Of a DNA stretch of 64,000 bases, positions 1 through 19,288 are shown in pieces (the first letter of the stretch is position 1; each line of letters opens with the position of its first letter). Below the pieces are notes generated by a model. It had not been told where the DNA came from, did no database searches, and saw only the letters and a program-made list of their open reading frames with translations. The DNA lies in the NCBI RefSeq assembly GCF_041886205.1, contig NZ_CP169029.1; one strand, written 5' to 3'. The DNA comes from Escherichia coli. GTDB taxonomy: Bacteria; Pseudomonadota; Gammaproteobacteria; Enterobacterales; Enterobacteriaceae. A program made the translations under genes and the position numbers.

Positions 1-590
1 ACAATATCCCGTGGATTCTGGATAACGGGCTGCACTGCGGCAACAGTCTGGTGCAGGCGGAAAACTGGATCAATATCGGCAACCCGGAGCTGATCGGCAA
101 GCGTGCCGGGCATCCGGTACCTGTCGGAACGGGCGGGACACTGCATGACTATGTGCCGTTTTATTTTACCCCCTTCTCGCCAATGCTGATGAACATCCAC
201 AGCGGGCGCGGCGGCATTAAGCAACGCCCCAATGAGGAGATCGTTATTCTGGTCAGCAACTTGCGAAACGTGGCAGCACACGACGTACCCTTCGTGTTTA
301 CCGACAGCCATGCTTACTATAACTGGACCAACTACTACACCAGTCTGGATAGTCTGGACCAGATCGACTGGCCCATTTTGCAGGCACGGGACTTTCGCCG
401 CGATCCAGACGATCCGGCTAAATTTGAACGCTATCAGGCAGAGGCGCTAATCTGGCAACACTGCCCGATCTCTCTGCTGGATGGGATAATTTGTTACAGC
501 GAAGAGGTCAGGTTACAATTAGAACAATGGCTGTTTCAGCGTAATCTAACAATGTCCGTTCACACACGGGCTGGATGGTACTTCTCATGA
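1..590 (+). CDS. darT: DarT-like ssDNA ADP-ribosyltransferase toxin (DUF4433), 5'-partial
   Basis: ORF 51..590 remains open in frame back to base 3 ([12 protein letters not shown]...), so the gene starts left of the window; C-terminal region contains a conserved glutamate context ([20 protein letters not shown]) reminiscent of DUF4433; followed with ATGA overlap by a macrodomain protein, the DarTG operon signature. Confidence 0.55.
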
Positions 591-1654
591 TCACATATAC
601 ACAAGGCAATTTACTGGACGCACCGGTGGAAGCTCTGGTGAATACGGTTAATACCGTCGGTGTCATGGGGAAAGGCATCGCGTTGATGTTTAAAGAGCGC
701 TTCCCCGAAAATATGAAAGTCTATGCCCTCGCCTGCAAACAAAAGCAGGTGATCACCGGCAAAATGTTCATTACCGAAACCGGGGAACTGATGGGACCGC
801 GCTGGATTGTTAATTTTCCGACCAAACAGCACTGGCGCGCTGATTCCCGCATGGAGTGGATTGAAGATGGCTTGCAGGACTTACGCCGCTTTTTGATTGA
901 AGAGAACGTGCAGTCCATCGCCATTCCACCACTGGGCGCAGGCAACGGTGGTTTGAACTGGCCGGACGTTCGGGCGCAGATTGAATCTGCCCTTGGCGAC
1001 CTTCAGGACGTTGATATCCTGATTTACCAACCGACTGAAAAATACCAGAACGTTGCCAAAAGCACTGGCGTAAAAAAGCTCACTCCCGCCAGAGCCGCCA
1101 TCGCTGAACTGGTGCGTCGCTACTGGGTATTGGGGATGGAGTGCAGCCTACTGGAAATCCAGAAACTGGCCTGGCTGTTACAACGCGCCATTGAGCAGCA
1201 TCAACAGGACGATATCCTCAAACTGCGGTTTGAAGCTCACTATTATGGCCCCTATGCGCCCAATCTGAACCATCTGCTTAATGCGCTGGACGGCACCTAT
1301 CTTAAAGCCGAGAAACGCATCCCGGACAGCCAACCGCTGGATGTGATCTGGTTTAACGATCAGAAAAAAGAACACGTTAATGCGTATCTGAACAACGAAG
1401 CCAGAGAGTGGCTACCTGCGCTGGAGCAGGTCAGCCAGTTAATTGACGGCTTTGAATCGCCGTTTGGTCTGGAGTTGCTGGCAACCGTAGACTGGTTGCT
1501 GAGCCGTGGCGAATGTCAACCAACGCTGGATTCCGTTAAGGAAGGGCTGCACCAGTGGCCTGCGGGCGAACGCTGGGCCAGCCGTAAGTTGAGGCTGTTT
1601 GATAATAATAATCTGCAATTTGCCATTAACCGCGTAATGGAGTTCCATTGCTGA
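587..1654 (+). CDS. darG: DarG-like macrodomain antitoxin
   Basis: N-terminal macrodomain motifs ([38 protein letters not shown]); about 355 aa; start ATG at 587 overlaps the stop of the upstream gene. Confidence 0.65.
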
Positions 1655-1672
1655 GGGTTTAAGGAGCGCCTT

Positions 1673-4600
1673 TTGAGTACCGTGGGCCAGCGCGAACGCG
1701 CCACACAGCAGCGTCTGATTCAGTTTTTTGTTGAAGATTTAGGTTACCGCCATCTGAGTCACCGCACCGGGTACACCGGGAACAGCAACATCGACACTAA
1801 TATACTGAGCGCGTGGCTAAAACGGCGCGGCGTTAATGATACGTTGATCACCCGGGCGTTGCGGCAACTGGATTCCGCCGCCGCTCTGGGCGAAGGCAAA
1901 AAACTCTATTACGCCAATAAAGAGGTCTATCGCCTACTGCGTTACGGCGTGAAAGACAAAGAAGGCGCAGGCGAGCAGAACCAAACCGTGTGGCTGATTG
2001 ACTGGGCCAACCCACAAGCCAATGATTTCGCCATCGCCGATGAGGTGACGGTCAAAGGCGAGTACTGCAAGCGCCCGGATCTGGTGCTGTACGTTAACGG
2101 CATTGCGCTGGGCGTGATTGAACTTAAGCGTTCGTCAGTGCACGTCAGCGAAGGCATCCGGCAGAATCTCGATAATCAAAAGAAAACCTTTATCCGCGAT
2201 TTCTTCACCACTATGCAGTTAGTGATGGCGGGCAACGATACGCAGGGCCTGCGCTACGGCACCATCGAAACCCCGGAAAAATACTATCTGGAGTGGAAAG
2301 AAGATAATCCAGGCGACTATACACATAAACTCGACTTTCATTTAAGTCGTCTGTGTAGCAAATCCAGGCTGTTGGATATCGTCCATAATTACATTGCCTT
2401 TGATGTCGGGGTGAAAAAACTCTGCCGCCATAATCAGTTCTTCGGCGTCGAGGCGGCTAAACAACATATTGCCCGTCGTGAAGGCGGTATTATCTGGCAC
2501 ACACAGGGATCGGGTAAAAGCCTGACGATGGTCTGGCTGGCGAAGTGGATCCGTGAAAATGTGCCAAACTCCCGCGTGTTGATTGTGACTGACCGCACCG
2601 AACTGGATGAACAGATCGAAAGCGTGTTTATGGGCGTGAATGAAGATATTTATCGCACCTCCAGCGGCAACGATCTTATCGCAACGCTCAATCATCCTAA
2701 CCCGTGGCTCATTTGCTCGCTGGTGCATAAATTTGGTCGTCGCAGCGAAGCTGAAGACAATGCAGCTACCGACGCCTTTATCACCGAATTACAGCACTCC
2801 CTGACGAAAACATTCCGCGCCAAAGGCGATCTGTTTGTTTTTGTGGACGAGTGCCACCGCACACAATCCGGCAAGCTGCATAACGCCATGACTGCCATTC
2901 TGCCGGACGCCCTGTTTATCGGTTTTACCGGCACACCGCTGATGAAGAAAGATAAGAAGAAGTCGGTTGAGGTGTTCGGCCCTTATATCCATACCTATAA
3001 ATTTGATGAAGCGGTGGCCGACGGTGTGGTGCTGGATCTGCGCTACGAGGCACGCGATATTGACCAGTATCTGACATCAGAGAAAAAGGTCGATGACTGG
3101 TTTGAAGCCAAGACTCGCGGTTTGTCGAATTTAGCTAGGACCCAGCTTAAGCAAAAGTGGGGATCAATGCAGAAGCTGCTCTCCAGCAAGTCGCGGCTGG
3201 AGCAGATCGTTAACGACATTTTGCTGGATATGGATACCCGTCCACGCCTGATGGACGGGCGCGGCAACGCCATGCTGGTATGCAGCAGTATCTATCAAGC
3301 CTGCAAGGTTTACGAGATGTTCAGCCAGACCGAGCTGGCAGGAAAAGTAGCGATTGTGACCAGCTATCGCCCCGATGCCGCCAGCATCAAAGGCGAAGAA
3401 ACGGGCGAAGGGTTAACGGAGAAACTCTCTAAACACGCCACCTATCGTAAAATGTTGGCTGACTATTTTGAACAAAGTGAAGAGAAGGCCGCCGCACGCA
3501 TTACCGAGTTCGAGCGGGAAGTGAAACAGCGTTTTATTGAAGAGCCGGGGCAAATGCGCCTGCTTATCGTGGTGGATAAGCTGCTGACTGGCTTTGACGC
3601 GCCGTCCGCCACCTATCTCTACATTGATAAAACCATGACCGACCATACGCTGTTTCAGGCGATTTGTCGGGTGAACCGGCTGGACGGTGAGGATAAAGAG
3701 TATGGCTATATTATCGATTATAAAGATCTGTTCCGTTCGCTGGATAAAGCGATTACCGATTACACCACGGGCGCGTTTGATGATTACGATCGGGACGATG
3801 TGGCCGGGTTGCTGAAAGACAGGCTAGAGCAGGCGCAACTGGATCTCGACAGCGCGCTGGAGATGGTTCGCAGCTTATGTGAACCCGTCAAAACCCCGCG
3901 CAGCCTGCAGGACTATCAGCACTATTTTTGCGGTGAATCAGGAGAGAATCAGACTTCGTTAAACGAAAAAGAGGCGCTGCGCCTGACATTTTACCAGTGC
4001 GTCGCCCGTCTGCTACGCGCTTATGCCAACATCGCCAATGAAATGCCGGAAGCAGGCTACACTGCCGAAGAGGTAGAGAGCATTCGCGCCGAAGTCGCTG
4101 AATTCGAAAAACTGCGCTATGAGATTAAGCTGACCAGCGGCGATCTTCTGGATATGAAGCGCTTTGAACCCGCTATGCGTCATTTACTGGATATGTATGT
4201 TCGCGCCGATGATAGCGAAGTGCTGATGGATTTTGAAGAGTTAAGTCTGATTGAACTGATTGTCGAGAAAGGCTTGGCGGCGACCGTCGCCCTGCCGGAT
4301 GATATCCGTAATAATCAGGATGCGATGGCGGAAACCATCGAAAACAACGTGCGCAAAACCATCGTGGATGAAAACCCGGTTAACCCAAAATACTATGGAC
4401 GCATGTCGCAACTGCTGGATGAACTGATTACCCTTCGCCGACAAAATGCGCTCAATTATCAGCAGTATCTGGAACGTATCCGCGATTTGTGTAAACAGGT
4501 CATCCGCCCGGAGCAAACCGCCGGAGCGTGCTACCCTGCCACCATGGATACACAAGCAAAGCGCGCCTTCTATGATAACTTCGGCCACGACGAGGTACTG

Positions 4601-4768
4601 GCGACCCGCATAGATACGACGATTCGCTATACCAAAAGGGCAGAGTGGATTGGCGATCGTTTTAAAGAACGGGAAATTGCCAACGCATTACGTGAAGAGA
4701 CCGCCAGCTATAATATTGATATTGATGAGGTGATAGCGCTTGCCCGTCAGCAGAAGGAATATCACTGA
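1673..4768 (+). CDS. hsdR: Type I restriction endonuclease R subunit (HsdR)
   Basis: 1031 aa; N-terminal PD-(D/E)xK nuclease motif (PDLVLYVNGIALGVIELKRS), Walker A (TQGSGKSLTMVW), DECH box (FVFVDECHRTQSG); TTG start with AAGGAG Shine-Dalgarno 7 nt upstream. Confidence 0.85.
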   Translation: MSTVGQRERATQQRLIQFFVEDLGYRHLSHRTGYTGNSNIDTNILSAWLKRRGVNDTLITRALRQLDSAAALGEGKKLYYANKEVYRLLRYGVKDKEGAGEQNQTVWLIDWANPQANDFAIADEVTVKGEYCKRPDLVLYVNGIALGVIELKRSSVHVSEGIRQNLDNQKKTFIRDFFTTMQLVMAGNDTQGLRYGTIETPEKYYLEWKEDNPGDYTHKLDFHLSRLCSKSRLLDIVHNYIAFDVGVKKLCRHNQFFGVEAAKQHIARREGGIIWHTQGSGKSLTMVWLAKWIRENVPNSRVLIVTDRTELDEQIESVFMGVNEDIYRTSSGNDLIATLNHPNPWLICSLVHKFGRRSEAEDNAATDAFITELQHSLTKTFRAKGDLFVFVDECHRTQSGKLHNAMTAILPDALFIGFTGTPLMKKDKKKSVEVFGPYIHTYKFDEAVADGVVLDLRYEARDIDQYLTSEKKVDDWFEAKTRGLSNLARTQLKQKWGSMQKLLSSKSRLEQIVNDILLDMDTRPRLMDGRGNAMLVCSSIYQACKVYEMFSQTELAGKVAIVTSYRPDAASIKGEETGEGLTEKLSKHATYRKMLADYFEQSEEKAAARITEFEREVKQRFIEEPGQMRLLIVVDKLLTGFDAPSATYLYIDKTMTDHTLFQAICRVNRLDGEDKEYGYIIDYKDLFRSLDKAITDYTTGAFDDYDRDDVAGLLKDRLEQAQLDLDSALEMVRSLCEPVKTPRSLQDYQHYFCGESGENQTSLNEKEALRLTFYQCVARLLRAYANIANEMPEAGYTAEEVESIRAEVAEFEKLRYEIKLTSGDLLDMKRFEPAMRHLLDMYVRADDSEVLMDFEELSLIELIVEKGLAATVALPDDIRNNQDAMAETIENNVRKTIVDENPVNPKYYGRMSQLLDELITLRRQNALNYQQYLERIRDLCKQVIRPEQTAGACYPATMDTQAKRAFYDNFGHDEVLATRIDTTIRYTKRAEWIGDRFKEREIANALREETASYNIDIDEVIALARQQKEYH

Positions 4769-5484
4769 TGCCAATCATGCAAATAGGCTCGTTACACTTG
4801 CTGGTCAACCGTAAGGCGATTAAGAATCTGCATATCAGCGTGCTGCCGCCTGATGGCAAAGTCCGCGTTTCAGCGCCGGAACATATGACGGAGACGGCGA
4901 TTCGTATGGCGGTTGCTTCACGCTTTCGCTGGATCAGAAAACAGCAGCAGGATTTCGCCAGACAGCCTCGTCAATCAGAGAGGGAAATGGTCAGCGGAGA
5001 GTGCCACTATCTTTGGGGCCGAAGATATCGCCTACTTGTGATTGAGCGTCACGGGCGTCACGAAGTAAAAGTTGCGGGAAATAATAAGCTCCAGCTTTAT
5101 GTTCAACCGGGAACCCGTGATGAAAATAAGGCATTGGCGTTAAGTGAATTTTATCGACATGAACTAAAACAGCAGGTGGCTAAGCTTCTACCTGAATGGC
5201 AGGACCGAATCGGTGTTCCCCTAACATTCTGGGGCATCAAAAAGATGAAAACCTTTTGGGGCACCTGTAACACTACAACAAAACGAATCTGGCTCAATCT
5301 GGAGCTAATTAAGAAGCCGCCGGAGTGTCTGGAGTATATTCTGGTGCATGAACTGGTTCATCTTCTGGAACGTCACCATAATGCTCGCTTCCGGTTGCAT
5401 ATGGATCGGTTTATTCCTGACTGGCGTGAGCGTCGGGATTTGTTAAATAATATGCCGTTAGCGTTTGAGGCATGGGAGTATTGA
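4768..5484 (+). CDS. DUF45 / M48-like zinc metallopeptidase (YgjP-like)
   Basis: 238 aa with HExxH motif (ILVHELVHLLERHH); start overlaps hsdR stop, so it is translationally coupled. Confidence 0.7.
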   Translation: MPIMQIGSLHLLVNRKAIKNLHISVLPPDGKVRVSAPEHMTETAIRMAVASRFRWIRKQQQDFARQPRQSEREMVSGECHYLWGRRYRLLVIERHGRHEVKVAGNNKLQLYVQPGTRDENKALALSEFYRHELKQQVAKLLPEWQDRIGVPLTFWGIKKMKTFWGTCNTTTKRIWLNLELIKKPPECLEYILVHELVHLLERHHNARFRLHMDRFIPDWRERRDLLNNMPLAFEAWEY

Positions 5485-6005
5485 TTGAGCCTGTAACTGT
5501 TTTTTGTCCATAAATTAACCTTCATTTGATGCTGGATTGAACATATCAAAATCAGACAATTACACAAATCTATGTACAGGCTCAACTCCTGCCATGGAAC
5601 GTAGTACTCACCAATAAGTAAGCATCAATACGGCGCTCCGTTAACGCTTACTAGCATGGTTATCTCCTTAAAAAATTGAGGCGACAACTATGCTGACGCA
5701 GGGGGGTATTGGGTGATCTCCTTCCATGAAAATACGCAGCTTGATTGCATTAAATTTATTTAATTTGCACTAATTTTGTTTAAGTTACATTACCACACGT
5801 GGGATATTGGAATACAAGCAACGCGAGGAATCAGTAAATATACCAATAATTGTATCACCCCTTTAATATTCATTAAGGTTTCAGGCCCTCCGGCACGATT
5901 CACCTGGCGAATCAATTCACGAGTCGCCCCAGAGTCACCGCCAATAAACATGCGATTCAACTCCCGATTCGATTCTCACTAATCTATTGTTTTATATAAA
6001 GATAG

Positions 6006-6063
6006 TCAGTACTGACTCTGTGACGACTCGCCGATGACTTGCCATAGAGTCATCGGCGAGTCG
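6006..6063. repeat. Two adjacent perfect palindromes (14 bp AGTCAGTACTGACT; 16-bp stem CGACTCGCCGATGACT with 8-nt loop)
   Basis: Read directly in an ORF-free AT-rich spacer downstream of the DUF45 gene. Confidence 0.8.
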
Positions 6064-6273
6064 GATCGGCATAATAAAAATTATCATAACGTAATTCTGA
6101 AATTATAACTTTATGATTTTAAATACCTATCAGCAAAAACTTGGTTTTGCATGGGGTGTGGAGATTTTGAGGTAAGAAGCAGGCTATCGTAAAATAGCCT
6201 GCTGGGATGGATTCAGTAATCACCGAATAAATTGCGGAGCAAAAAAACCGCCAATCAAGAGATGGGTTAGCAA

Positions 6274-6609
6274 TCAATTTTCGTATTTAAATTCAATATT
6301 AATCTTTAAAGCCTCTACATCTACTGTCACTTCACAGCCATGCCAGAATGGTTTTTCCTGAGATTTAAAGTTATCTAGAAAATAATTTCTTAATTCCACA
6401 AGAAAATCAAATAAATCACCGTTTGCTTGTGCCCCTGCCGAAAACCAATCAGTATTGCCAGTATCTGCATTTATATAGTCAAATTCACATTTACAATGAT
6501 CATTTTCAGGAGACAGTTCTGCTCTCATGATCACTTTGGATGCATTTTCAGGCGCAATGGATAGCAATACTGAACCTATATCATTATAAATCTCTTGATC
6601 AGTCCTCAC
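6274..6609 (-). CDS. Hypothetical small protein, immunity-protein-like
   Basis: 111-aa ORF starting with GTG immediately after the stop of the upstream ORF, with GGAGGT Shine-Dalgarno embedded in the upstream gene end; AT-rich. Confidence 0.35.
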   Translation of the reverse strand: MRTDQEIYNDIGSVLLSIAPENASKVIMRAELSPENDHCKCEFDYINADTGNTDWFSAGAQANGDLFDFLVELRNYFLDNFKSQEKPFWHGCEVTVDVEALKINIEFKYEN

Positions 6610-6921
6610 CTACTTACCTCCGGGTACATTTTTAAACGTTTCAGATACCGGCCTTATGCTGTTACCTGTATAAGATGGCTGGATATTAACTTTAATGCTC
6701 ACTATCCCTGACTCATCCATCTGCTGCATCAACAGAACGGATAAGTCATTCTTCATTGCCCACGGAATATCTTCACCCAATGCCCTGTCTATGGCTTCGT
6801 GAACCAACAAACTGTTAGCAGGGATGTCACCGTACTTCTCTTTGCAGGCTGTCGGGCTCGAAGCACATGTTGCGATCAGTTCATTACGCTGCTTGAGACT
6901 CAGATCTTCCATTTCTTTCAC
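6610..6921 (-). CDS. Hypothetical small protein, possible toxin C-terminal-domain-like module
   Basis: 103-aa ORF abutting the downstream ORF (TAG then GTG); preceded by a 9-bp-stem hairpin at about 7010-7035. Confidence 0.3.
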   Translation of the reverse strand: MKEMEDLSLKQRNELIATCASSPTACKEKYGDIPANSLLVHEAIDRALGEDIPWAMKNDLSVLLMQQMDESGIVSIKVNIQPSYTGNSIRPVSETFKNVPGGK

Positions 6922-7047
6922 GATCTGACCACAGTCACCACGGGCCTCACAACCTTTCGCCCTCGCCGCAAAGTTATCGATCTGATCAGCACTCAGGTAG
7001 TTATTCTCAACAACAATCCCAACTAAAAGGGTTGGGATTCATTACCC

Positions 7048-7491
7048 TTATGTATAAAGACTATCGTCGTAGGGTGCTTCAGTCAGAATTTTTTGAATTT
7101 CATGTCGTGCTTTTAGCTCCCATGAAAGATTCATATTTGCCATTAACTCAATAAATTTTGGGAACGCGATACGTCGTCCATCTCTGCCTTTAACCCTGTG
7201 TTCTAATTCATATTGGAATGCTGTCTTATAAGCGAGTTCTGACATGATCCAATAAAGTAGCTCATCTAGTGACCTAGTAACCTTCCGCGAGAATTCATAA
7301 CCTCTTTCTGAATGAATGTAATTATATACATTGTTTTCAAATGTAACATATGGTGTGCCATCACCAATTGGAGCGGAACAAAGATTAACTGAATGTCTTG
7401 GGAGACCAGCTTGCAAGGTCAACGCGTCAATTTTCCTTTGTATTTCATTGATATTCAGCAACATATTAGCGAACCTCACGAATATATCCAT
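7048..7491 (-). CDS. Hypothetical protein, immunity-protein-like
   Basis: 147-aa ORF whose ATG lies inside the 3' end of an upstream open frame (overlapping toxin/immunity-style arrangement). Confidence 0.35.
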   Translation of the reverse strand: MDIFVRFANMLLNINEIQRKIDALTLQAGLPRHSVNLCSAPIGDGTPYVTFENNVYNYIHSERGYEFSRKVTRSLDELLYWIMSELAYKTAFQYELEHRVKGRDGRRIAFPKFIELMANMNLSWELKARHEIQKILTEAPYDDSLYT

Positions 7492-7721
7492 TCTTCAATA
7501 GCCATTCCACATTCACTCGATCTTGCATATTAGGTAATATCTGAATCCCCCCTCCAGGCTCACCAAAAGCGGGGGCAATCTTTCCTTGTATAGCAGGCAA
7601 GGGTTTTATTACCTCATATTCATAGTATTTATATGAACGCATCCCGTTTGCAAGGCATCCATTGTTTTGACATGACGGGTAGGTTGCAGCTTTATATCCG
7701 GCTTTATTGCAGCCGTAACGC
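7468..7721 (-). pseudogene. Start-less open frame, possible C-terminal fragment of a truncated polymorphic-toxin gene
   Basis: Open frame on the minus strand (...NKAGYKAATYPSCQNNGCLANGMRSYKYYEYEVIKPLPAIQGKIAPAFGEPGGGIQILPNMQDRVNVEWLLKNGYIREVR*) with no plausible start, ending 21 nt inside the downstream ORF. Confidence 0.25.
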
Positions 7722-8094: not shown

Positions 8095-9666
8095 TTACTG
8101 AGAGCTCAGATCAACTTTCCAGGGCAACAGATCGCGTACCCGGTTTGCCGGCCAGTCCTGGATATGTTCAATGACGTAACGCAGCCACTTTTCTGGCTCC
8201 ACATTGTTCAGACGGCATGTGCCGATCAGCGAGTACAACACCGCCGCATGTTCACCACCGCTGTCGGAACCCGCGAACATCCAGTTTTTCCGGCCTACGG
8301 CCACTCCCCGTAAGGCGTTCTCTGCGATGTTGTTGTCGATTTCCACCCAGCCATTACTGCAGTACACGTTCAGTGCATCCCACTGTTTCAGCAGGTATGC
8401 GAACGCTTTTGCCGTATCTGAGTGACGCGACAGTGTTTTCATCTGTTGCTGTATCCAGTCATACAGTGACTGCATCAGTGGCGCGGCTCTGGCTTTTCTT
8501 GCCGCCAGACGCTGTTCTGCTGAACAGCCCCGGACCTCTGCCTCGATGGCATACAGTTCACCGATACGCTGCAGGGCTTCCGTGGTGATGTAGGTGGACG
8601 CTCTTGCATGCACATCGTGGATTTTTCTCCGGGCATGAGCCATACACGCGGCTTCCGTTATTCTGCCGGATTCGTATAACGCCCGGTAACCACCGTAAGC
8701 ATCGGCCTGAAGCACACCGCTGTAACCGGCCAGGTGATTTTGTGGATGGATACCTTTCCGGTCCGGACTGTACGCGAACCAGACCGCCGGGGGCATCTGT
8801 GAACCGGCGTTACGGTCATCACGGACGTAGACCCACAGCCGGGCTGTCCGGGTTTTACCGCTGCCCGGCTCCTGGACCGGGACGGGGATATCATCAGCAT
8901 GGACTTTACCGGGCATCAGCACATACTGGCGCAGGACGTCATACAGCGGCTCCAGCAGTTCAGCAACAGCACCTGTCCAGCGCCCCAGTGTGGCACGGCT
9001 CAGCTCCACTCCCTGACGACGGTATATTTCTGACTGGCGGTATAACGGCAGATGGTCTGCATATTTCCCGGTGACAACATGGGCCAGAAGCCCCGCTCCG
9101 GCATAACTGCGTGCAATGGGTTTTGAAGGTACTGGTGCCTGCACGATATGGTCGCACCGGCAACAGGCCTGTTTCGGACGTTGTGTTTCGATAACCTTAA
9201 AGGCGCTGCTGATAAGCTCCAGTTGCTCTGACACATCACATCCCAGAGAACTGAGTTCACCACCACAGGCAGGACAGCATTCCTCTTCCGGCCGGATAAC
9301 CCGGGTTTCACGGGGAAGTGAGGCCGGTAACGGTTTACGGGCTGAAGACTGGCGCAGGGCGGATGGCAGTACCGGGTCATATTGCTCACCCAGCGTTTCC
9401 GCCATTTCTTCCTGAAGTGCGCTGATTCGCTCCTGTGCTTCCTGTATCTGCCGTTCGGTTTTTGCACGAAGTTTTTCTGAGCTTTTACCGAACTGCATAC
9501 GTTGCAGTTTCGCAACCAGCGCCTTCAGCCGGTTGATTTCGGAAGCATAAGCCGCCACCCGCTGTGAGAGCAGGCGGTTGTATTCAGCCATCTGGCGGAT
9601 GGTGTCCTGTTGCGTCTGCAACAGTGCCCGCAGGCGGGCGTTCTCATGAGCAAGTGAGGTGTCCAT
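8095..9666 (-). CDS. IS66-family transposase TnpC
   Basis: 523 aa, N-terminal coiled-coil/leucine-zipper region, CxxC zinc-finger pairs, typical IS66 TnpC length. Confidence 0.85.
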
Positions 9667-9685
9667 ATCCTCACTTTACAACGGG

Positions 9686-10033
9686 TTATATGCGGATTCC
9701 AGCGCGTTCCGTTCGTTTCGGGTGCTTCCAGTTGATACCTTCAAGAAGCATGGATAACTGAGCCGGAGTAAGGTGCACCTTGCCGTCACGGGTGACTGGC
9801 CAGACGAAGCGGCCCCGCTCCAGGCGTTTGGTGAAGAGGCACAGTCCGTCACTGTCAGCCCACAACACTTTTATCTGGTCACCCCGGCGTCCGCGGAAGA
9901 TGAACAGGTGTCCGGAGAACGGGTCATCCTTCAGGACGTTCTGAACTTTTGATGCCAGGCCGTTAAAGCCATTTCGCATATCGGTGATACCTGCAACCAG
10001 CCAGATACGCGAACCTGCAGGGAGAGATATCAT
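9686..10033 (-). CDS. IS66-family TnpB (orfB)
   Basis: 115 aa; WLVAGITDMRNGFNGLASKVQ motif characteristic of IS66 orfB. Confidence 0.85.
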   Translation of the reverse strand: MISLPAGSRIWLVAGITDMRNGFNGLASKVQNVLKDDPFSGHLFIFRGRRGDQIKVLWADSDGLCLFTKRLERGRFVWPVTRDGKVHLTPAQLSMLLEGINWKHPKRTERAGIRI

Positions 10034-10710
10034 CAGTGGCTGCTCCCTTTTATTTCGCGGATAAGTGTCTGTAATAACGCCGGCGTCAGTTTACCTTTAA
10101 GCCTGAGAGTTCCGGCCGGCAGAACCAGCTCACAACACAGACTGTCGGACGGTGTATTTATCTGCTCTGGTTCCTGTGCGGGGGCCGGGATTTTATTATC
10201 CGGCTCCGGCGTTAACGTCACGGGAAGCAGTGCCGGCATATTTTTTCCGGAAGGCAGCAGGCCACCTTTCCGGTATTGATGGCGCCAGTTGAAGAGCAGG
10301 TTATCGTTGATTCCGTTTTCCCGGGCGATCTGCGCCACACAGGCTCCGGGCTGCAGTGACTGCTCCACTAAGGCGATTTTAAACTCATAAGGGAAGTTGG
10401 GCCGCCGGGGACGTTTTTTTACCACGGGGGCTTCGGATATAACGGTGCTTTCAGGACGTACGACTGGTACCGTGGAAAATTGTCCGTAAAGGCAGGCATC
10501 AAGTTCCTGCTCCGACATGCCTGCGGGCAAAGGCCACGAAAGGCCAGCTCTCCGAAAGCGCACGAACATACTACAAACTGTTGATTTTGGTACACCCAGG
10601 CGACGCCCGGCCACAACCCGGGGTAAATGTTCTTCAAAGTGAAGACGTAAAGCTTCAGTGATCCAGGTCCGGTGTTTCATACGATAGTGTCCATTAAAAA
10701 TGATGGACAT
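10033..10710 (-). CDS. IS66-family orfA (HTH accessory protein, extended form)
   Basis: 225 aa; C-terminal IS66 orfA-like region (FKIALVEQSLQPGACVAQIARENGINDNLLFNWRHQY); start/stop overlap with orfB. Confidence 0.7.
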   Translation of the reverse strand: MSIIFNGHYRMKHRTWITEALRLHFEEHLPRVVAGRRLGVPKSTVCSMFVRFRRAGLSWPLPAGMSEQELDACLYGQFSTVPVVRPESTVISEAPVVKKRPRRPNFPYEFKIALVEQSLQPGACVAQIARENGINDNLLFNWRHQYRKGGLLPSGKNMPALLPVTLTPEPDNKIPAPAQEPEQINTPSDSLCCELVLPAGTLRLKGKLTPALLQTLIREIKGSSH

Positions 10711-10763
10711 TATTTTTGTAGAGCCGGAGGAAACAGACCAGACGGTTTAAATGAGCCGGTTAC

Positions 10764-11629
10764 TTAGCTACTAATGCCACCGCTCTTGCACCGTGGATAA
10801 ATAATGTCCTGAGATAAGTGTCACCACGTTTGCTTATCCCCAGCAGACGTACTTTCCCTCCGGAGCCAGTTTGTTTTGGAACCAGACCAACATATGCGGC
10901 GAACTCTCGCCCCGATTTAAACGCTGATGCTTCCCCCATGGTGGCCACCGCTGCCGTCGCAATAAGTGGTCCAACGCCAGGAATATCCAGCAACCGCTTA
11001 CAGGTTTCATTCTGCCTCGCCACGCTGGTAAGCTGTTTTTCAATATCCTCTATCAGTGAGTCCAGCTCATTCAGTCGGTTGTACTGGTTTTCCAGAACCA
11101 TAATGAGATACGGTGGCAGTCTCTCTTTCATCCGTTCCAGTGCTTCGGGGAACTCCCGCTCCATCGCTGCCCGGCCTTTGTGGATGGTTTCACCAAACTC
11201 CAGTAACGTCCCGTGCAGGGCATTAATTTGTGCGGTCCGGAACTTCACCAGTTGCATGCGGGTACGGTGCAGAACCAGTACCGACTGCTGTTCTTCTGTT
11301 TTTACGGCGATTTCTTTACCCGGCTGCTGAACCGCCATCCAGATAGCCCGGGCATCCATCACATCATTCTTATTGCCCATGACGAATGCCTTAACGAAGC
11401 GGGCCTGCAACAACCGGACTTTATGACCAAGTTTTGTCAGTTCCCGTGCCCAGTGCTGAGAACCTCCACAGGCCTCCATACCAATCAGGCATGGCTCACG
11501 GTTGCCGAAGAACATCAGAAAATCCTGTCTACGCAACTGTTTATCAACCACTTCACCTGTGTGCTCATTGATGAAGTGAATCTGAATGACATGTTTTGCG
11601 ATATCAACGCCAACCGGTGTATATTTCAT
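10764..11629 (-). pseudogene. IS110-family transposase, N-terminal 288 codons, truncated by the IS66-family insertion
   Basis: N-terminus MKYTPVGVDIAKHV (DEDD/RuvC-like) and C-terminal Tnp domain (DIPGVGPLIATAAV...YVGLVPKQTGSGGK...ISKRGDTYLR); its stop codon is supplied by the terminal bases of the IS66-family element. Confidence 0.7.
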
Positions 11630-11771
11630 TTGTGGAGTCTCCAGTCTGAGGGAGCTTTATGCATCCCGTATTGGGCACTATGATGCCGGAAATCTGCGAG
11701 GCTCCACACCTGCCAGTTTCACCCTTTTAACCATCATACTGCTCCGTGTTTAATTGTGTGGGATGCGTTCA

Positions 11772-11942
11772 TTACATTTTCACCATTTTGCCACTGCGGC
11801 CCCGGAAGACGAAGATATGCCCGGAGAACGGGTCATCTTTCAGCGTGTTCTGCACCTTCGAAGCCAGGCCGTTGAAGCCACAACGCATATCTGTGATGCC
11901 AGCGATGATCCAGATTCTGGTACCGGTCGGCAGCGTTATCAT
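11772..11942 (-). pseudogene. IS66-family orfB fragment (first ~50 codons) of a second, truncated IS66-family copy
   Basis: Translation MITLPTGTRIWIIAGITDMRCGFNGLASKVQNTLKDDPFSGHIFVFRGRSG then diverges; homologous to the intact orfB at 17905..18252. Confidence 0.6.
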
Positions 11943-12613
11943 CGGATACCCCCTTTCATTTCGCGAATGAGCACCCTAAGAAGCTCCGGAGTAAGGGGGG
12001 CAAACAGTTTTACCACACCTGATTTAAGATGCAGCTCACACTGTGGTGAGTCTACGGTAGTGTCATTCTGGCTTTCATCAGACTTGTTTCGCCAGAAAGG
12101 ATTTGTCACCGGTTTGACAGGGTCAGGAGTCTCAGTGATTGCTACCGGAACGGCCTGACATTCTTGGAGATCCTCATCATACAGTAAGCCCTCTTCATAC
12201 AGTCTTTTCCAGTTAAACAACAGATTGTCATTAATATTGTGCTCTCTGGCGATCCGTGCAACGACTGTACCAGGCTGTAATGCCTGTTTTACCAGCCTGA
12301 TTTTAAATTCACGACTGTAGGAGGTTCGTCGTTCTTTTCGCCATGTGCTTTCGCTGATTTGAGGCTCGGTTAATACCTTCTTTCTGTTGGCATAAAGTAT
12401 GGCATCAAGTTGGGCGACTGAAAGTGATTCAGGTAATGGCCAGGTAATACCGGAGGCATTAAATCGTTGAAAGAGATTATGAATAGTGGAATGACTGAGA
12501 CCTAACTGCAGGGCGATAGCCCGGACAGATAATTGCTCGTCGAATCTTAGACGTAATGCGTCTGGCAAATAAGAGCGAAAGCCGGTGATATCTTTTGTTG
12601 TCTGAGAATTCAT
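11939..12613 (-). CDS. IS66-family orfA (copy 2, extended form)
   Basis: Homologous to the orfA at 10033..10710 (IRLVKQALQPGTVVARIAREHNINDNLLFNWKRLY); probable start MNSQTT at 12613. Confidence 0.6.
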   Translation of the reverse strand: MNSQTTKDITGFRSYLPDALRLRFDEQLSVRAIALQLGLSHSTIHNLFQRFNASGITWPLPESLSVAQLDAILYANRKKVLTEPQISESTWRKERRTSYSREFKIRLVKQALQPGTVVARIAREHNINDNLLFNWKRLYEEGLLYDEDLQECQAVPVAITETPDPVKPVTNPFWRNKSDESQNDTTVDSPQCELHLKSGVVKLFAPLTPELLRVLIREMKGGIR

Positions 12614-12945
12614 CGTTCGTGTCCATCTATATAGATGGACGCGATTGTTGCCAGACAGGACAACCATCACAAAACGTCACAGACGGAGCCTTACATCTCA
12701 GCTGTAGCACACGCAGGATCAATTCCGGATTATCTGCCAGTACCGCCTTTCGTGCATTCATCTTAAATGTCCTTTTACTGCGAAAATGGACATTAGTATC
12801 GGAAACAGGAAAGGGAGGCGAAAGACGGTTTAAATGATGCGCTTACTGTTGTCTGGGAATTCATCGTTTGTGTCCATCAATATAGTTGGGCACGATTGTT
12901 GCCAGACAGGACAATTTTCACAAGACGTCGCAGATGGGGCGCTTA
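12596..12945. repeat. Imperfect ~90-bp direct repeat of an IS66-family terminus / orfA 5' region (12596-12700 and 12853-12945) containing the 20-bp perfect palindrome GTCCATCTATATAGATGGAC
   Basis: Aligned by eye; both copies carry GAATTCATCG...GTCCAT...GATTGTTGCCAGACAGGACAA; a CGCTTAC-type terminus follows at 12843-12850 and 12937-12943. Confidence 0.6.
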
Positions 12946-13267
12946 CCAATAACTCGGCAGGGAGTTATCTGTGCGAGGATATTTGTGTTATGCTGTAATA
13001 TAATAATTCAATGTGTTCAGGAACAGTAATATGCTACAGTTTCTACTTTCTTGTATTTAATAAATTGTTCCGTATCGCTAAAAGCAGGTCTTTCAGAAGT
13101 CAAAAGGATTCTGTGGTCCCAGTATTTTTAGTTATCTTATTTTTATATCTAATTTGTAATACTTATAGCATTTTCATTCTTCCTAATGGAAGGCTGTAAT
13201 AATCTTTGAGCTTAGGAACATCAAAATTATGCATCTCATTAATTTTGTCAGTCACACGACCTCTGGT

Positions 13268-13304
13268 AAAAATAAAACCCACAGAAATATGCCATTTCTA
13301 TGGG
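13268..13304 (-). terminator. Rho-independent terminator downstream of the MFS transporter gene
   Basis: Minus-strand hairpin CCCATAGAAATGGCATATTTCTGTGGG followed by TTTTATTTTT. Confidence 0.55.
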
Positions 13305-13325
13305 CTTCGTAAGAATCAATATATT

Positions 13326-14609
13326 TTAGTTACATTTAGCTCTAAGTGTTTGTAGTTTCATCGCAATGAGTAAAAGGACAACAAGAATAAGTGATAACGT
13401 TAAGAGAAGAGCATAGAAACCATTCCAGTGGTATATTTCTATTATTTTAGACAATGGATAGCCAGCCGCGGATGCACCAAGATATGCGAATAAACTAACA
13501 AAACCAGTAGAAGCACCAGATGCATATTTATGTGAGTTTTCAGCAGCTGCCATTGCGATCAGAAATTGTGGACCAAAGATAAAGAAGCCAGTGATGAAAA
13601 ATAACAACGAAAAAACATATTTACTATCGATAGAAACCAACCATAGACATGCAGAAGCAATGATTATACCAATTGTATAAATAACATTCATTTGAGAGCG
13701 ATTGCCCTTAAACAGAATATCTGATCCCCATCCAGCTACGATAGCACCAAAAAAGCCTCCAACCTCAAACATCATTACTGTTGCATTTGCTGTTAGCAAG
13801 TCATATTTATGAGTCTCAATCAAATACAAATTTCCCCAGTCATTGATTCCTGTACGAATAACATAAATAACTGCATATGATATTGCCAATACCCAAATTA
13901 TATTATTTTTAAATATATAATCTTTTAAGATATTCCATTGTGACAACCCTATACCTTGTTCTTCATGATTAATCTCAGCTATATCATTACGCCACTCTCC
14001 AACTGTTGGTAATCCCATCGATCTTGGTCGATCACGCAATAAGAAACATAATAAAATGCCAATAATAACAGCAATGGCCCCCGGAATAATCATGCCATAA
14101 CGCCAACCTAGCCATAAGGCAACACTACCTGATAAAATAGGGATAATTGCTCCACCGATATTATGAGATGTATTCCATATGGACCACCAGAATCCACGTT
14201 CATTTCGGGAATACCAAGTATTTAAAATTTTTGAACACGGAGGCCATCCCCATCCCTGAAAAAAAGCATTAACCATCCATAAAAATATAAACAAAGGTAT
14301 AGATGATGTTAAACCAAACAATATATTGACACATCCAGTCATTATCAATCCAATCCCCATAAACCATCTTGGATTAGAACGATCACCTATAACTCCAGAA
14401 ATAAATTTTGATGCCCCATAAGTTAGATAAAATGCCGTTCCGACCATACCAATATCTGATTTTGTAATACCTAAATCAGATAGCATCTCAGGCATTACGA
14501 AGTTAAAGCTCTTTCGTGTGAAATAAAATACAGCATATCCTATATAGCTCACAATCATTAAATGAAGTCGCCAATATCTATATGTTTTATCAATATCAGT
14601 TTTACTCAT
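13326..14609 (-). CDS. MFS transporter, organophosphate:phosphate antiporter family (UhpC/UhpT/GlpT/PgtP-like)
   Basis: About 427 aa, 12 predicted hydrophobic segments, family-typical motifs (DRSNPRWF, FFQGWGWPP); AT-rich; likely start MSKTDIDK at 14609. Confidence 0.7.
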   Translation of the reverse strand: MSKTDIDKTYRYWRLHLMIVSYIGYAVFYFTRKSFNFVMPEMLSDLGITKSDIGMVGTAFYLTYGASKFISGVIGDRSNPRWFMGIGLIMTGCVNILFGLTSSIPLFIFLWMVNAFFQGWGWPPCSKILNTWYSRNERGFWWSIWNTSHNIGGAIIPILSGSVALWLGWRYGMIIPGAIAVIIGILLCFLLRDRPRSMGLPTVGEWRNDIAEINHEEQGIGLSQWNILKDYIFKNNIIWVLAISYAVIYVIRTGINDWGNLYLIETHKYDLLTANATVMMFEVGGFFGAIVAGWGSDILFKGNRSQMNVIYTIGIIIASACLWLVSIDSKYVFSLLFFITGFFIFGPQFLIAMAAAENSHKYASGASTGFVSLFAYLGASAAGYPLSKIIEIYHWNGFYALLLTLSLILVVLLLIAMKLQTLRAKCN

Positions 14610-14956
14610 TGTTATTTCTTTGTCAGGAGACTCTGAAAATATGGACATATATAACCTCTTTTATTATGAAATATTTTCAATAATAATCCGTTAGTAATCC
14701 TATCATAGGGTAATGCCTCATCATGTTAAAATGATCACATTTATAATCATGTCAAAAAGAACAACAGAAAAAATGATTTAAAATCAATTAAATATAATTT
14801 CAACATATTGTTGTTATTAAAACATTGGTGGTAAATGTAAAGCGAGAACAGTTTGTAACAGTGACTCCTTGCAGACTAAGTTAGAGTCTCCTGATCTTAC
14901 CCAGCAATAGTGGACACGCGGCTAAGTGAGTAAACTCTCAGTCAGAGGTGACTCAC

Positions 14957-15256
14957 ATGACAAAAACAGTATCAACCAGTAAAAAACCCCGTAAACAGCA
15001 TTCGCCTGAATTTCGCAGTGAAGCCCTGAAGCTTGCTGAACGCATCGGTGTTACTGCCGCAGCCCGTGAACTCAGCCTGTATGAATCACAGCTCTACAAC
15101 TGGCGCAGTAAACAGCAAAATCAGCAGACGTCTTCTGAACGTGAACTGGAGATGTCTACCGAGATTGCACGTCTCAAACGCCAGCTGGCAGAACGGGATG
15201 AAGAGCTGGCTATCCTCCAAAAGGCCGCGACATACTTCGCGAAGCGCCTGAAATGA
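14957..15256 (+). CDS. insE: IS3 OrfA (InsE)
   Basis: Translation [32 protein letters not shown]... matches my recollection of IS3 InsE. Confidence 0.85.
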
Positions 15257-16119
15257 AGTATGTCTTTATTGAAAAACATCAGGCTGAGTTCAGCATCAAA
15301 GCAATGTGCCGCGTGCTCCGGGTGGCCCGCAGCGGCTGGTATACGTGGTGTCAGCGGCGGACAAGGATAAGCACGCGTCAGCAGTTCCGCCAACACTGCG
15401 ACAGCGTTGTCCTCGCGGCTTTTACCCGGTCAAAACAGCGTTACGGTGCCCCACGCCTGACGGATGAACTGCGTGCTCAGGGTTACCCCTTTAACGTAAA
15501 AACCGTGGCGGCAAGCCTGCGCCGTCAGGGACTGAGGGCAAAGGCCTCCCGGAAGTTCAGCCCGGTCAGCTACCGCGCACACGGCCTGCCTGTGTCAGAA
15601 AATCTGTTGGAGCAGGATTTTTACGCCAGTGGCCCGAACCAGAAGTGGGCAGGAGACATCACGTACTCACGTACAGATGAAGGCTGGCTGTATCTGGCAG
15701 TGGTCATTGACCTGTGGTCACGTGCCGTTATTGGCTGGTCAATGTCGCCACGCATGACGGCGCAACTGGCCTGCGATGCCCTGCAGATGGCGCTGTGGCG
15801 GCGTAAGAGGCCCCGGAACGTTATCGTTCACACGGACCGTGGAGGCCAGTACTGTTCAGCAGATTATCAGGCGCAACTGAAGCGGCATAATCTACGTGGA
15901 AGTATGAGCGCAAAAGGTTGCTGCTACGATAATGCCTGCGTGGAAAGCTTCTTTCATTCGCTGAAAGTGGAATGTATCCATGGAGAACACTTTATCAGCC
16001 GGGAAATAATGCGGGCAACGGTGTTTAATTATATCGAATGTGATTACAATCGGTGGCGGCGGCACAGTTGGTGTGGCGGCCTCAGTCCGGAACAATTTGA
16101 AAACAAGAACCTCGCTTAG
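15253..16119 (+). CDS. insF: IS3 OrfB (InsF, DDE transposase/integrase core)
   Basis: 288 aa; rve-type catalytic core; overlaps orfA as expected for -1 frameshift expression. Confidence 0.9.
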
Positions 16120-16248
16120 GCCTGTGTCCATATTACGTGGGTAGGATCAATAAGCATATCCAGAGGTGGTGTACAAGCCAGAGTAAAACGTGAGTTTTAT
16201 TTGGTAAAATCGTAAGCGCCCTTTGTAGAGCGTAGTGTAAGCAGGGGT

Positions 16249-17885: not shown

Positions 17886-17904
17886 CCTGCCCAGGTAAAG
17901 GGAT

Positions 17905-18252
17905 TCAGATCCGCAGACTATTACTTTTCGACCTTCCCGGTTGCATCCAGACTATACCCTCCAGCAGCATGGCAAGCTGTGCCGGGGTCAGATACACCTT
18001 TCCCTCCCGGGCGACCGGCCAGATGAACGTTCCCCGTTCAAGTCTTTTCATATAGATGCAGAGCCCTCCGCTGTCTGCCCACAGGAGTTTTACCAGCCTG
18101 CCCCTGCGTCCCCGGAAGATGAAGAGATGGCCGGAGATCGGGTCATCCTTCAGGGTGTTCTGGACCTTTGCGGCCAGACCGTTGAAGCCGTTTCTCATGT
18201 CGGTGATGCCGGCCACGAGCCAGATAAGGCAGCCAGCCGGAAGCGTAATCAT
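17905..18252 (-). CDS. IS66-family TnpB (orfB)
   Basis: 115 aa, close homologue of the orfB at 9686..10033. Confidence 0.8.
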   Translation of the reverse strand: MITLPAGCLIWLVAGITDMRNGFNGLAAKVQNTLKDDPISGHLFIFRGRRGRLVKLLWADSGGLCIYMKRLERGTFIWPVAREGKVYLTPAQLAMLLEGIVWMQPGRSKSNSLRI

Positions 18253-18659
18253 ACTGTGCTCCTGCCGGCGAGTTCGCGGACGATCCGGAGCTGTTTCTCC
18301 GGGTCAGGATTGTCGAGTGTGAGGGTGCCGTGGCGAAGCGTCAGCGAGCAGGTTGACCCCGTTCCCTGACCAGACAGAGCCGGAGACTGCCGGGTGGTGG
18401 AGTCAGGTACAATTTCGACCGGAAGTGCCGCAGGAGGGGATACAGATGGAACGGGAGCTGGCAGCCGGCGGAATACCCGGCCTTCTTTACGCCACAGACG
18501 GATCCATTTAAAAAGGACGTTATCGTTGACCCCGTGCGTACGGGCAATATCCGCAACATTGGCGTCCGGTCGGGTAGCCAGTTCGACCAGCCTGAGTTTG
18601 AATTCGCTGGAATAAACGCGGCGGGGTTCGGTCCGCCAGGCCCGGGTTTCAGATTCCAT
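18249..18659 (-). CDS. IS66-family orfA
   Basis: 136 aa; FKLRLVELATRPDANVADIARTHGVNDNVLFKWIR motif. Confidence 0.75.
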   Translation of the reverse strand: MESETRAWRTEPRRVYSSEFKLRLVELATRPDANVADIARTHGVNDNVLFKWIRLWRKEGRVFRRLPAPVPSVSPPAALPVEIVPDSTTRQSPALSGQGTGSTCSLTLRHGTLTLDNPDPEKQLRIVRELAGRSTV

Positions 18660-18796
18660 AACTTAGATGTCCGTCTGTTTCAGATGGGCGTCTAAGTTAG
18701 CGTTTTCACTCGACTGCCTGAAGACGTCTCTGACGGGTCGCTTACGTAAAATCAACCACGGGAAGCTCAACGGTGAAGTACTTTACCAGTTGATCA

Positions 18797-19090
<294 letters not shown>

Positions 19091-19288
19091 AATCGTGATC
19101 ATTTTTTGTTGACCACTACAAACATTTATGTTTTTTTATGCGAATGAAGTTATCCTTCCTTTCTGCCTGGTTGTCTCATTCATACAGATATCTGGCAGAC
19201 ATAACTTGTTGTGAAAAGTAGATGCTTACCGCATGTCTGATGCACTTTTGTATAAAGGCAAAGTATTTCAGCAAATGGAAATGATTAT

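Follow-up and report, generated by a model that had tools for sequence, protein, structure and literature searches.

Positions 1 to 5484 of the analysed window, a 64,000-nucleotide stretch of Escherichia coli DNA, very probably represent the distal end of the RRDM defence island, covering darT'-darG-hsdR-peptidase out of its seven genes (Table 1). This locus is already known: RRDM (RptR–type I restriction–DarTG2–M48) was published and named in 2025 as an anti-phage island of EPEC O127:H6 E2348/69 (Zhang et al., NAR 2025, PMC12255303), and the protein accessions of the present locus are those given there. DarTG modules inserted in type I operons have been on record since 2016 (PMC5179494). The stretch holds the right-hand two thirds of the island, whose genes follow each other in one orientation (rptR-hsdM-hsdS-darT-darG-hsdR-M48) in genome ZYB62 and in an EPEC derivative, and which is carried by about 250 of 5,426 complete E. 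coli genomes. Taken by itself, the locus brings no novelty; it remains of interest for the peptidase, for the cargo slot between hsdS and hsdR and for the rptR allele.

Table 1. Genes of the RRDM island located in the window.
Gene	Position	Strand	Product and remarks
darT (3' 196 codons)	1..590	+	DNA ADP-ribosyltransferase toxin of DarTG2 system
darG	587..1654	+	Macrodomain ADP-ribosyl-DNA glycohydrolase antitoxin with C-terminal DarT-binding domain
hsdR	1673..4768	+	Type I restriction subunit, 1031 aa; TTG start
YgjP-like (DUF45) peptidase gene	4768..5484	+	Zinc metallopeptidase, annotated 'M48 family'; last island gene

The four open reading frames are all real at these coordinates, and none of the encoded proteins has lost its catalytic residues. 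From base 3 onwards the darT frame stays open until its TGA (588-590); the gene start lies 67 nt left of the window edge, so that the edge cuts the gene and the window begins at codon 23 of 218 (codons 23-218 inside). The genes are tightly packed: 12 nt separate hsdS from darT, darT and darG overlap by the ATGA at 587-590 that the initial annotation had reported ('ctcATGAtc', with the darG ATG at 587-589 and the darT TGA at 588-590), and the hsdR start, preceded by AAGGAG, lies 18 nt past the darG stop. Finally, the hsdR stop TGA and the peptidase start ATG overlap by a single base ('cacTGATGcca'), and the two genes are translationally coupled. A promoter and terminator scan of positions 1-6200 gave counts equal to the shuffled expectation and no internal promoter can be claimed; an Rfam scan returned no match within 1-5484 and a tRNA scan none in the window.

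The reading of the first two genes as a DarT/DarG pair, proposed from the DNA letters, was confirmed by curated HMMs. DarT, although truncated by the edge, scores 246.3 bits against NCBIfam toxin_DarT NF048013 (cutoff 150) and is also recognised by the PADLOC DarT model (6.3e-67), and DarG scores 451 bits against antitoxin_DarG NF048014 (cutoff 250). Among solved structures, DarT matches Thermus DarT (PDB 7omv, E 1.6e-26), and its catalytic glutamate of the ARTT motif, E170 ('YQAEAL'), falls at the 'kqAafl' position in the 7omv crystal construct, which we take to be the E160A catalytic mutant (cf. PMC5179494, Fig. 1B). Residues 1-152 of DarG match the Taq DarG macrodomain (5m31, E 4e-55) and keep the catalytic lysine (K80 of 'FPTKQHW', aligned with 'FPTKKHW' of 5m31), and residues 183-351 match 7yk3_B (E 5e-13), from a structure which also holds a DarT chain, 7yk3_A. 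The system was typed on DarG, a macrodomain indicating DarTG2 and a NADAR domain DarG1. Because DarT is identical to EPEC DarT2 at 215 of 218 residues, we infer that it would ADP-ribosylate thymidine in single-stranded DNA and would be toxic without DarG; the activity of the DarT2 family is summarised in PMC12255303.

HsdR was identified by TIGR00348 (546 bits, cutoff 285) and by the PADLOC model REase_I PDLC03044 (1636 bits), and it has the residues of a PD-(D/E)xK nuclease, PD...ExK (D136, E150, K152), and the SF2 motor motifs Walker A GSGKS279, DECH392 and TGTP419. Its nearest solved relative is HsdR of EcoR124I (type IC), at only E 4e-35, and EcoKI HsdR is absent among its solved-structure matches at E <= 0.001. 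The atypically long HsdM (812 aa) likewise matches the EcoR124II M subunit at 1e-64 and EcoKI HsdM with a far lower score (E 6e-22), in a subtype comparison that covered IA and IC references.

The initial annotation had expected hsdM and hsdS just left of the window and had described darTG as nested inside a type I RM operon. Both expectations were borne out by ZYB62, which is 100% identical to positions 1-5600 and in which the order is hsdM-hsdS-darT-darG-hsdR-M48; hsdM and hsdS, both outside the window, are intact there and sit immediately left of darT, a position they also take in about 246 other E. coli genomes. ZYB62 matches the window up to about 38 kb, except for an ISEc23 insertion, and diverges further right. 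The surroundings of the island form an IS-rich, mobile region with many pseudogenes. Compared with EPEC RRDM, gene content, order and overlaps are alike and the DNA is 99.3% identical over positions 1-5651. For DarG (355/355, WP_000634203.1) and the peptidase, identity with the EPEC proteins is 100%, and DarT, HsdR (1025/1031) and HsdM (806/812) differ by three, six and six substitutions, respectively. The differences concern the flanking IS elements, the chromosomal site and HsdS, as only 186 of 449 residues of the ZYB62 protein are shared; its target-recognition domains differ from those of EPEC, and the DNA specificity presumably differs too. The proposed defence-island reading agrees with the phage protection conferred by the near-identical EPEC island, since pBR322-RRDM, carrying the island as a whole, cut phage plating by 10^3 to >10^7 for five phages (PMC12255303).

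Just outside the window, rptR carries an in-frame 69-bp deletion (codons 50-72) in ZYB62 and in O157:H7 strains, by which the DNA-recognition helix is lost. EPEC RRDM is repressed by RptR, which binds TAGCTA repeats, and confers phage resistance (PMC12255303). Two ATTTAGCTA repeats are found in the ZYB62 rptR promoter versus three in EPEC; two TAGCTA repeats remain. Because of this internal deletion, regulation in the ZYB62 lineage may differ from that of EPEC, and O157:H7 and related strains could be natural cases of constitutive de-repression of the island. The deleted rptR, together with the IS elements and pseudogenes that fill the surroundings, could also suggest that the window copy is a decaying, non-functional remnant. 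We consider this extremely improbable: the four reading frames are full length with intact catalytic motifs, over 5.65 kb the DNA nearly equals that of the functional EPEC island, ZYB62 has intact hsdM and hsdS, and a truly decayed copy looks different, as in Pectobacterium (locus L013), where many fragmented ORFs are found.

The association of the peptidase with hsdR extends far beyond E. coli RRDM. Related genes lie directly 3' of hsdR in 20 related loci, at 91% down to 39% identity, with the 1-nt stop/start overlap in most of them; a scan of genome contigs with the peptidase as query returned only 13 loci. Peptidase divergence tracks that of the RM subunits (peptidase 50%, HsdR 54% and HsdM 54% in one case; peptidase 42% and HsdR 40% in another). 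Judged from these comparisons, the peptidase belongs to the fixed core of this HsdR lineage and is not tied to darTG. Indeed, a role as a DarTG component was ruled out, as the peptidase persists with other cargoes or with none. Across its whole breadth, the peptidase family is not tied to RM, because homologues at about 40% identity from Desulfobacula MAGs, a Desulfobacterales MAG and a Bacteroidetes MAG lack an upstream HsdR relative; in locus L008, Trk potassium-transport genes lie upstream of the homologue.

The sister loci share the frame hsdM (~810 aa)-hsdS-[X]-hsdR-peptidase, in which the cargo X varies, and darTG is one of several interchangeable cargoes of this hsdS|hsdR slot. Briefly, the other contents are a Menshen NsnC-containing cargo, a Ppl-like ATPase with AlbA_2, Fic with AlbA_2, RhuM/PDC-S05, DUF262+AAA (loci L016 and L030) and no cargo at all (empty slot). 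In PADLOC, the alternative cargoes correspond to defence families, known or candidate, and the slot, being a natural cargo site, could be mined for new defence genes.

Taken as a whole, the island is in all likelihood a horizontally mobile operon stacking two anti-phage defence lines. In the first line, HsdM2S would methylate the host's own sites, as shown for the family, and HsdR2M2S would translocate and cut unmethylated incoming DNA, as shown for the family and, at the level of the entire island, for near-identical EPEC RRDM. In the second line, DarT would ADP-ribosylate thymidines of single-stranded DNA and thereby block replication, an activity shown for EPEC and other DarTG2 systems; DarG would restrain it doubly, the macrodomain stripping the adduct and the C-terminal domain sequestering DarT, until infection tips the DarT/DarG balance and phage replication is aborted. 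The darTG genes here form a cargo cassette between hsdS and hsdR, a place taken by other defence modules in sister loci. These two lines are established for the families rather than for the single modules of RRDM, because the contributions of the modules were not separated in PMC12255303. Alternatively, darTG could mainly be an addiction module stabilising the RM operon or the island, an explanation for insertion in type I operons already raised by Jankevicius et al. (PMC5179494) and consistent with the IS-rich, mobile location. We regard it as very improbable, since DarTG1 and DarTG2 are robustly anti-phage (cited in PMC12255303; several phage counter-defence papers) and the slot is otherwise filled by defence-type cargoes.

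The last gene of the island, as the initial annotation had claimed, encodes an HExxH DUF45 peptidase coupled to hsdR: Pfam YgjP-like PF01863 (former DUF45) matches residues 25-228 at 1.6e-61, HELVH occupies residues 194-198, and conservation among 92 homologues is at least 90% for H194, E195 and H198 as well as for H204. The label 'M48' is loose, because the match to true M48 (Ste24/HtpX, PF01435) has only E = 0.1 and is not significant. A PDB sequence search gave only marginal matches (E >= 0.13). The catalytic domain is a minigluzincin/Spartan-like zincin, similar in fold to the minigluzincins (proabylysin, projannalysin, selecase) and to the DNA-protein-crosslink proteases SprT/Wss1/Spartan, with insignificant sequence similarity to any solved protein; the fold similarity is confined to a catalytic core of ~100 residues common to many zincins. 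Unlike minigluzincins and Spartan, the peptidase has a 118-residue beta-rich N-terminal domain without solved relative, and no DNA-binding or ubiquitin-related modules were detected in it. The protein is extremely conserved, with ~70% identity among enterobacteria, vibrios and methanotrophs. A phage origin was rejected, as there was no PHROG match and only 4 weak matches in 50,697 phage records. The statement that this partner of HsdR has no assigned role stood up to a literature search (DUF45, COG1451, PF01863, YgjP, HsdR with metallopeptidase), which returned no functional study of the peptidase; several 'DUF45' matches in the literature actually concerned DUF450. Zhang et al. included the peptidase gene in their RRDM construct, where it was neither individually tested nor discussed (PMC12255303).

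We tentatively suggest that the peptidase might be an active zinc endopeptidase that targets HsdR or the restriction complex bound to DNA, as a built-in counterpart of ClpXP-mediated restriction alleviation or for a Spartan/Wss1-type removal of proteins stuck on DNA. By analogy with Spartan/Wss1, it could be a dedicated operon-encoded protease which degrades HsdR or the translocating or stalled complex and provides a type I family other than IA/IB with its own alleviation and self-protection, a possibility we hold with rather low confidence. ClpXP-dependent alleviation concerns types IA and IB, and type IC uses a different mechanism (PMC12707154); the proximity of the present HsdR to type IC fits this proposal. 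An 854-aa homologue which fuses YgjP-like, Peptidase_M78 (ImmA/IrrE-like) and HTH_26 domains argues against it and points to regulator cleavage.

The latter alternative, in which the peptidase is a de-repressor that cleaves RptR (or another HTH protein heading the operon) on infection, like CapP/CapH, ImmA/ImmR and IrrE/DdrO, appears rather unlikely to us. In its favour, hsdM is induced more than 15-fold upon infection, Zhang et al. argue that RptR must be removed by proteolysis or sequestration via an unknown factor, and M48 is among the genes conserved with RptR in their neighbourhood analysis (PMC12255303). In all loci with a visible upstream region, hsdM is also preceded by a small HTH gene (RptR-like in L002-L005, L013, L029 and L030, HTH_26 in L024/25 and HTH_17 in L032). 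However, the conserved physical coupling is with hsdR and not with the regulator, the peptidase is kept in loci whose upstream regulators are unrelated and in L031, which has no such regulator, and RptR also precedes non-RM modules. The peptidase is moreover intact and 100% identical to that of EPEC where rptR has lost its DNA-binding helix, although this deletion may be recent; the HTH of the 854-aa fusion resembles neither RptR nor the L024 HTH protein in sequence, and in structure the peptidase matches CapP and IrrE much more weakly than Spartan or the minigluzincins. Knowing the substrate would explain either the self-control of this type I family or the switch-on of the island, and an HsdR-degrading peptidase, if true, would give a first physiological role to a large branch of the DUF45/YgjP family (~20,000 representative clusters).

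Among known systems, EcoprrI-PrrC resembles the present island in that an abortive-infection effector occupies the hsdS|hsdR slot of an RM system of the type to which our HsdR is nearest. The likeness verified here is this shared gene position: PrrC is an RM-masked tRNA nuclease, whereas the present island uses a DNA ADP-ribosyltransferase that comes with an enzymatic antitoxin of its own. DarTG could nevertheless be a guardian wired to the RM enzyme in the manner of PrrC, silent with the intact complex and freed by a phage anti-restriction protein, and the position shared with prrC of the type IC ecoprrI (PMC12707154), the type IC affinity of HsdR and the tight gene packing are consistent with this. 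We consider such wiring improbable, because DarTG2 moved alone into E. coli behaves as a self-contained toxin-antitoxin defence (summarised in PMC12255303), DarG already gives two autonomous control mechanisms, and the many unrelated cargoes of the slot are better accounted for by a recombination hotspot than by specific wiring between proteins. Vibrio cholerae VPI-2 TgvAB likewise places a second defence system within a type I RM operon, and experiments showed this system to act independently (bioRxiv 10.1101/2024.04.04.588119); a VPI-2-like DUF262+AAA cargo is the one present in sister loci L016 and L030 of our RM family. VPI-2 differs by its five-gene operon (VC1765-69) with adjoining Zorya genes (VC1761-64) and no listed peptidase gene. 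As for proteases linked to restriction, ClpXP is a host AAA+ serine protease which is not RM-encoded, and the anti-restriction metalloprotease ArdC is plasmid-borne and acts against RM, whereas the peptidase described here is encoded by the RM operon itself.

The four genes at the left end of the window (1-5484) belong to a published island. Zhang et al. (NAR 2025, PMC12255303) described in EPEC E2348/69 the seven-ORF island rptR-hsdM-hsdS-darT-darG-hsdR-M48, named RRDM, and their accessions for DarG (WP_000634203.1) and M48 (WP_001122107.1) are those annotated in E. coli ZYB62, whose genome is 100% identical to the window over 1-5600 (99.9% for many other strains, O157:H7 included). We retrieved the EPEC island and aligned its proteins and DNA to the window lineage. 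Identical residues amount to 355/355 for DarG, 238/238 for the peptidase, 215/218 for DarT, 1025/1031 for HsdR and 806/812 for HsdM, and at the DNA level homology to the EPEC island extends as far as 5651, with 99.3% identity over window 1-5651. The DarTG module nested in a type I restriction-modification (RM) defence island, as proposed in the initial annotation, is thus the RRDM: the observation is confirmed and its interpretation supported. This system was already described and experimentally validated, and the remaining interest lies in the peptidase, which comparative data tie firmly to HsdR and not to DarTG, and, to a smaller extent, in a natural deletion allele of rptR.

Features of the defence locus and its surroundings (window positions, except where L001, the ZYB62 locus, is named)
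Feature	Position	Strand	Observation
rptR	L001 10858-11094 (ZYB62 2911185-2911421)		~4 kb left of window base 1
hsdM	L001 11134-13572		outside the window; product of 812 aa
hsdS	L001 13572-14921		outside the window
darT, 3' part	frame open from base 3 to TGA at 588-590	+	raw sequence, ORF list
darG	ATG at 587-589	+	start in ATGA quartet also containing the darT stop
hsdR	TTG start 18 nt past darG stop; end 4768	+	AAGGAG before TTG; raw sequence
peptidase gene	ATG at 4768; end 5484	+	A of ATG common to hsdR TGA (TGATG)
ISEc23 (IS66-family)	~6168		in ZYB62; absent there from the window
row of small ORFs	6274-7642	-	ZYB62 annotation: hypothetical proteins, 'immunity 63 family protein', truncated TNT-domain toxin
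IS66-family (ISCro1), IS110 (ISEc11) and IS3 elements and fragments	8095-21000		around a lone uhpC
complete myo-inositol catabolism cluster	~22054-36310		iolB, iolE, iolG, iolD, ABC transporter, MurR/RpiR regulator
TOTE conflict-system primase gene fragment, inovirus Gp2-like gene, YfjI-family gene	~36900-46900		tyrosine integrase adjoining ycdU in the same region
Ysr251 (188 bits), two naRNA4 copies	48811-49004; 50147-50324	+; -	Rfam, above gathering score; unrelated to the finding

The ORF list and raw sequence bear out the co-directional arrangement, the darT/darG overlap and the coupling of hsdR to the DUF45 gene that had been read at first sight. In the identical genome darT (218 codons) starts 67 nt left of the window edge, which therefore falls at codon 23. 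There, hsdM and hsdS lie left of darT, just where the initial annotation expected them, preceded by a small gene annotated 'hypothetical, incomplete'. Curated profiles leave no doubt about the predicted identities of the four proteins, and they agree with the families first assigned: DarT scores 246 bits against NCBIfam toxin_DarT (cutoff 150), DarG 451 bits against antitoxin_DarG (cutoff 250) and HsdR 546 bits against TIGR00348 (cutoff 285), PADLOC matches DarT, DarG and REase_I, and the peptidase matches Pfam YgjP-like PF01863 (ex-DUF45; E 1.6e-61). Against PF01435, the profile of the M48 family proper, the peptidase reaches only E = 0.1; 'M48 family metallopeptidase', as RefSeq labels it, is therefore a nominal name.

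Key residues are retained throughout. DarT keeps its catalytic glutamate (E170 in YQAEAL, aligned with the catalytic position of Thermus DarT structures); the DarG macrodomain matches Taq DarG (E 4e-55) with the conserved lysine K80, and for the C-terminal domain of DarG the match is the DarG chain in PDB 7yk3, an entry that also contains a DarT chain. As the antitoxin carries a macrodomain, the system is a DarTG2. In HsdR the nuclease triad PD...ExK and the SF2 motifs are present, and the peptidase has HELVH at 194-198, with H194, E195, H198 and H204 kept in at least 90% of 92 homologues. Going by what is established for the EPEC island, which is nearly identical to this one, or for the families concerned, the type I part would restrict and modify DNA, DarT would ADP-ribosylate thymidine in ssDNA and so block replication, DarG would sequester DarT and reverse the modification through its macrodomain, RptR would repress the island, and the island would protect against phages. 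In PMC12255303 this protection belongs to RRDM as a whole, with RM, DarTG and M48 taken together.

Among 5,426 complete E. coli genomes, hsdR and the peptidase gene occur (at least 80% coverage) in ~254 and the stretch with darTG in 246; in E. coli this RM therefore almost always takes the darTG-bearing form. HsdS of this lineage has just 186/449 residues in common with that of EPEC, whereas HsdM and HsdR are >99% identical. Judging from this alignment the target-recognition domains are swapped, and with so little identity the DNA specificity should presumably differ from that of EPEC. Past the methyltransferase core, the ~330 C-terminal residues of HsdM match nothing in PDB or Pfam, and a long HsdM (714-890 aa) is found in all sister loci with the peptidase.

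RptR represses its promoter via TAGCTA repeats (PMC12255303). In ZYB62, rptR has lost 69 bp in frame between short direct repeats, and with them residues 50-72, including Glu58, Ser60, Lys61, Leu69 and Ala72; these belong to the DNA-recognition/dimerisation helix defined by Zhang et al. (PMC12255303). The deletion form is present in 35/249 matching E. coli records, a good number of which are O157:H7 (O157 has no mention in PMC12255303), and the rptR promoter of this lineage has two ATTTAGCTA repeats instead of three. The island may consequently be de-repressed, or constitutively expressed, in the deletion lineage.

To the right, the row of small ORFs looks like an orphan polymorphic-toxin/immunity remnant; PADLOC returned no matches for its ORFs. 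The myo-inositol cluster shares its genomic island with the defence genes. ARAGORN found no tRNA genes over the whole window, and the attachment site of the island is therefore not an intact tRNA inside it.

Complete islands with ~90% protein identity are present in Edwardsiella, Klebsiella indica, Xenorhabdus, Dickeya and Enterobacter, and a degraded copy in Pectobacterium. These copies vary only in the HsdS recognition domains, and nucleotide homology to them ends at the peptidase stop codon (5484-5488), which makes the peptidase gene the last of the mobile unit. In every one of the 20 related loci with a visible gene upstream and a homologue of 42% identity or more, it lies right behind hsdR, and so does the gene of a fusion protein at 39% identity; the one-base stop/start overlap persists in most of them. 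The peptidase has diverged in step with HsdR and HsdM (50% for the peptidase beside 54% for HsdR and 54% for HsdM; 42% for the peptidase beside 40% for HsdR). The family is huge (20,196 representative clusters at E <= 1e-3), and the ~40%-identity homologues from a genome scan (Desulfobacula, Desulfobacterales, Bacteroidetes MAGs) have no HsdR relative upstream; hence only one branch is RM-linked. One homologue (L008) neighbours Trk potassium-transport genes. A phage origin of the peptidase gene was rejected, the gene being essentially absent from phage records.

The AF2 model of the peptidase is confident (pLDDT 95.9); for its beta-rich N-terminal domain (118 residues; pLDDT 93 alone) no solved relative was found. 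We suggest that the protein would be an active zinc endopeptidase acting with or on HsdR. Our favoured proposal, still tentative, is that it targets HsdR or the DNA-bound complex, serving the operon as its own factor for restriction alleviation or clearance: the coupling to hsdR is conserved with co-divergence, the core is Spartan/Wss1-like, and ClpXP-dependent alleviation has been described for types IA/IB and not IC, to which this HsdR is nearest. The main rival, that it cuts RptR or an equivalent small repressor, seems to us unlikely. Such a role would suit the unknown proteolytic or sequestering factor postulated by Zhang et al. (PMC12255303), and human oral metagenome contigs (L031/L032 10001-12565) encode an 854-aa protein, 39% identical, in which the YgjP-like peptidase is combined with an IrrE-like Peptidase_M78 domain and with HTH_26. 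However, this HTH is not similar to RptR, the peptidase stays with unrelated or absent regulators and with a deleted rptR, and RptR is found without it. The fusion gene still begins on the final base of the hsdR stop codon; downstream of it come genes for DUF4357, helicase, NERD and ADP-ribosylglycohydrolase proteins.

More distant relatives retain the frame hsdM(~810 aa)-hsdS-[slot]-hsdR-peptidase with a different slot content, assigned with PADLOC: DUF262, AAA ATPase and NsnC (Menshen-like) in one V. cholerae lineage and E. coli C10; a Ppl-like ATPase and an AlbA_2/HATPase protein in other V. cholerae; Fic and AlbA_2 in Methylomicrobium; RhuM/PDC-S05 in two metagenomic contigs; and nothing in Photorhabdus and the oral-metagenome contigs. 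Whatever the other cargo, several sister loci (L015-L018: Vibrio cholerae, Methylomicrobium album) have a SLFN_AlbA_2 + HATPase_c_4 gene right before hsdR. Because the slot content changes while the frame stays, darTG is one interchangeable cargo, in agreement with Zhang et al. (PMC12255303), who speak of a 'recombination hotspot'. A PrrC-like guardian, with DarTG wired to the RM system, and a pure addiction role of darTG are both less likely, since DarTG2 functions on its own and unrelated defence modules also occupy the slot. As interchangeable cargo, darTG also fits with TgvAB and PrrC, which are likewise embedded in RM operons.
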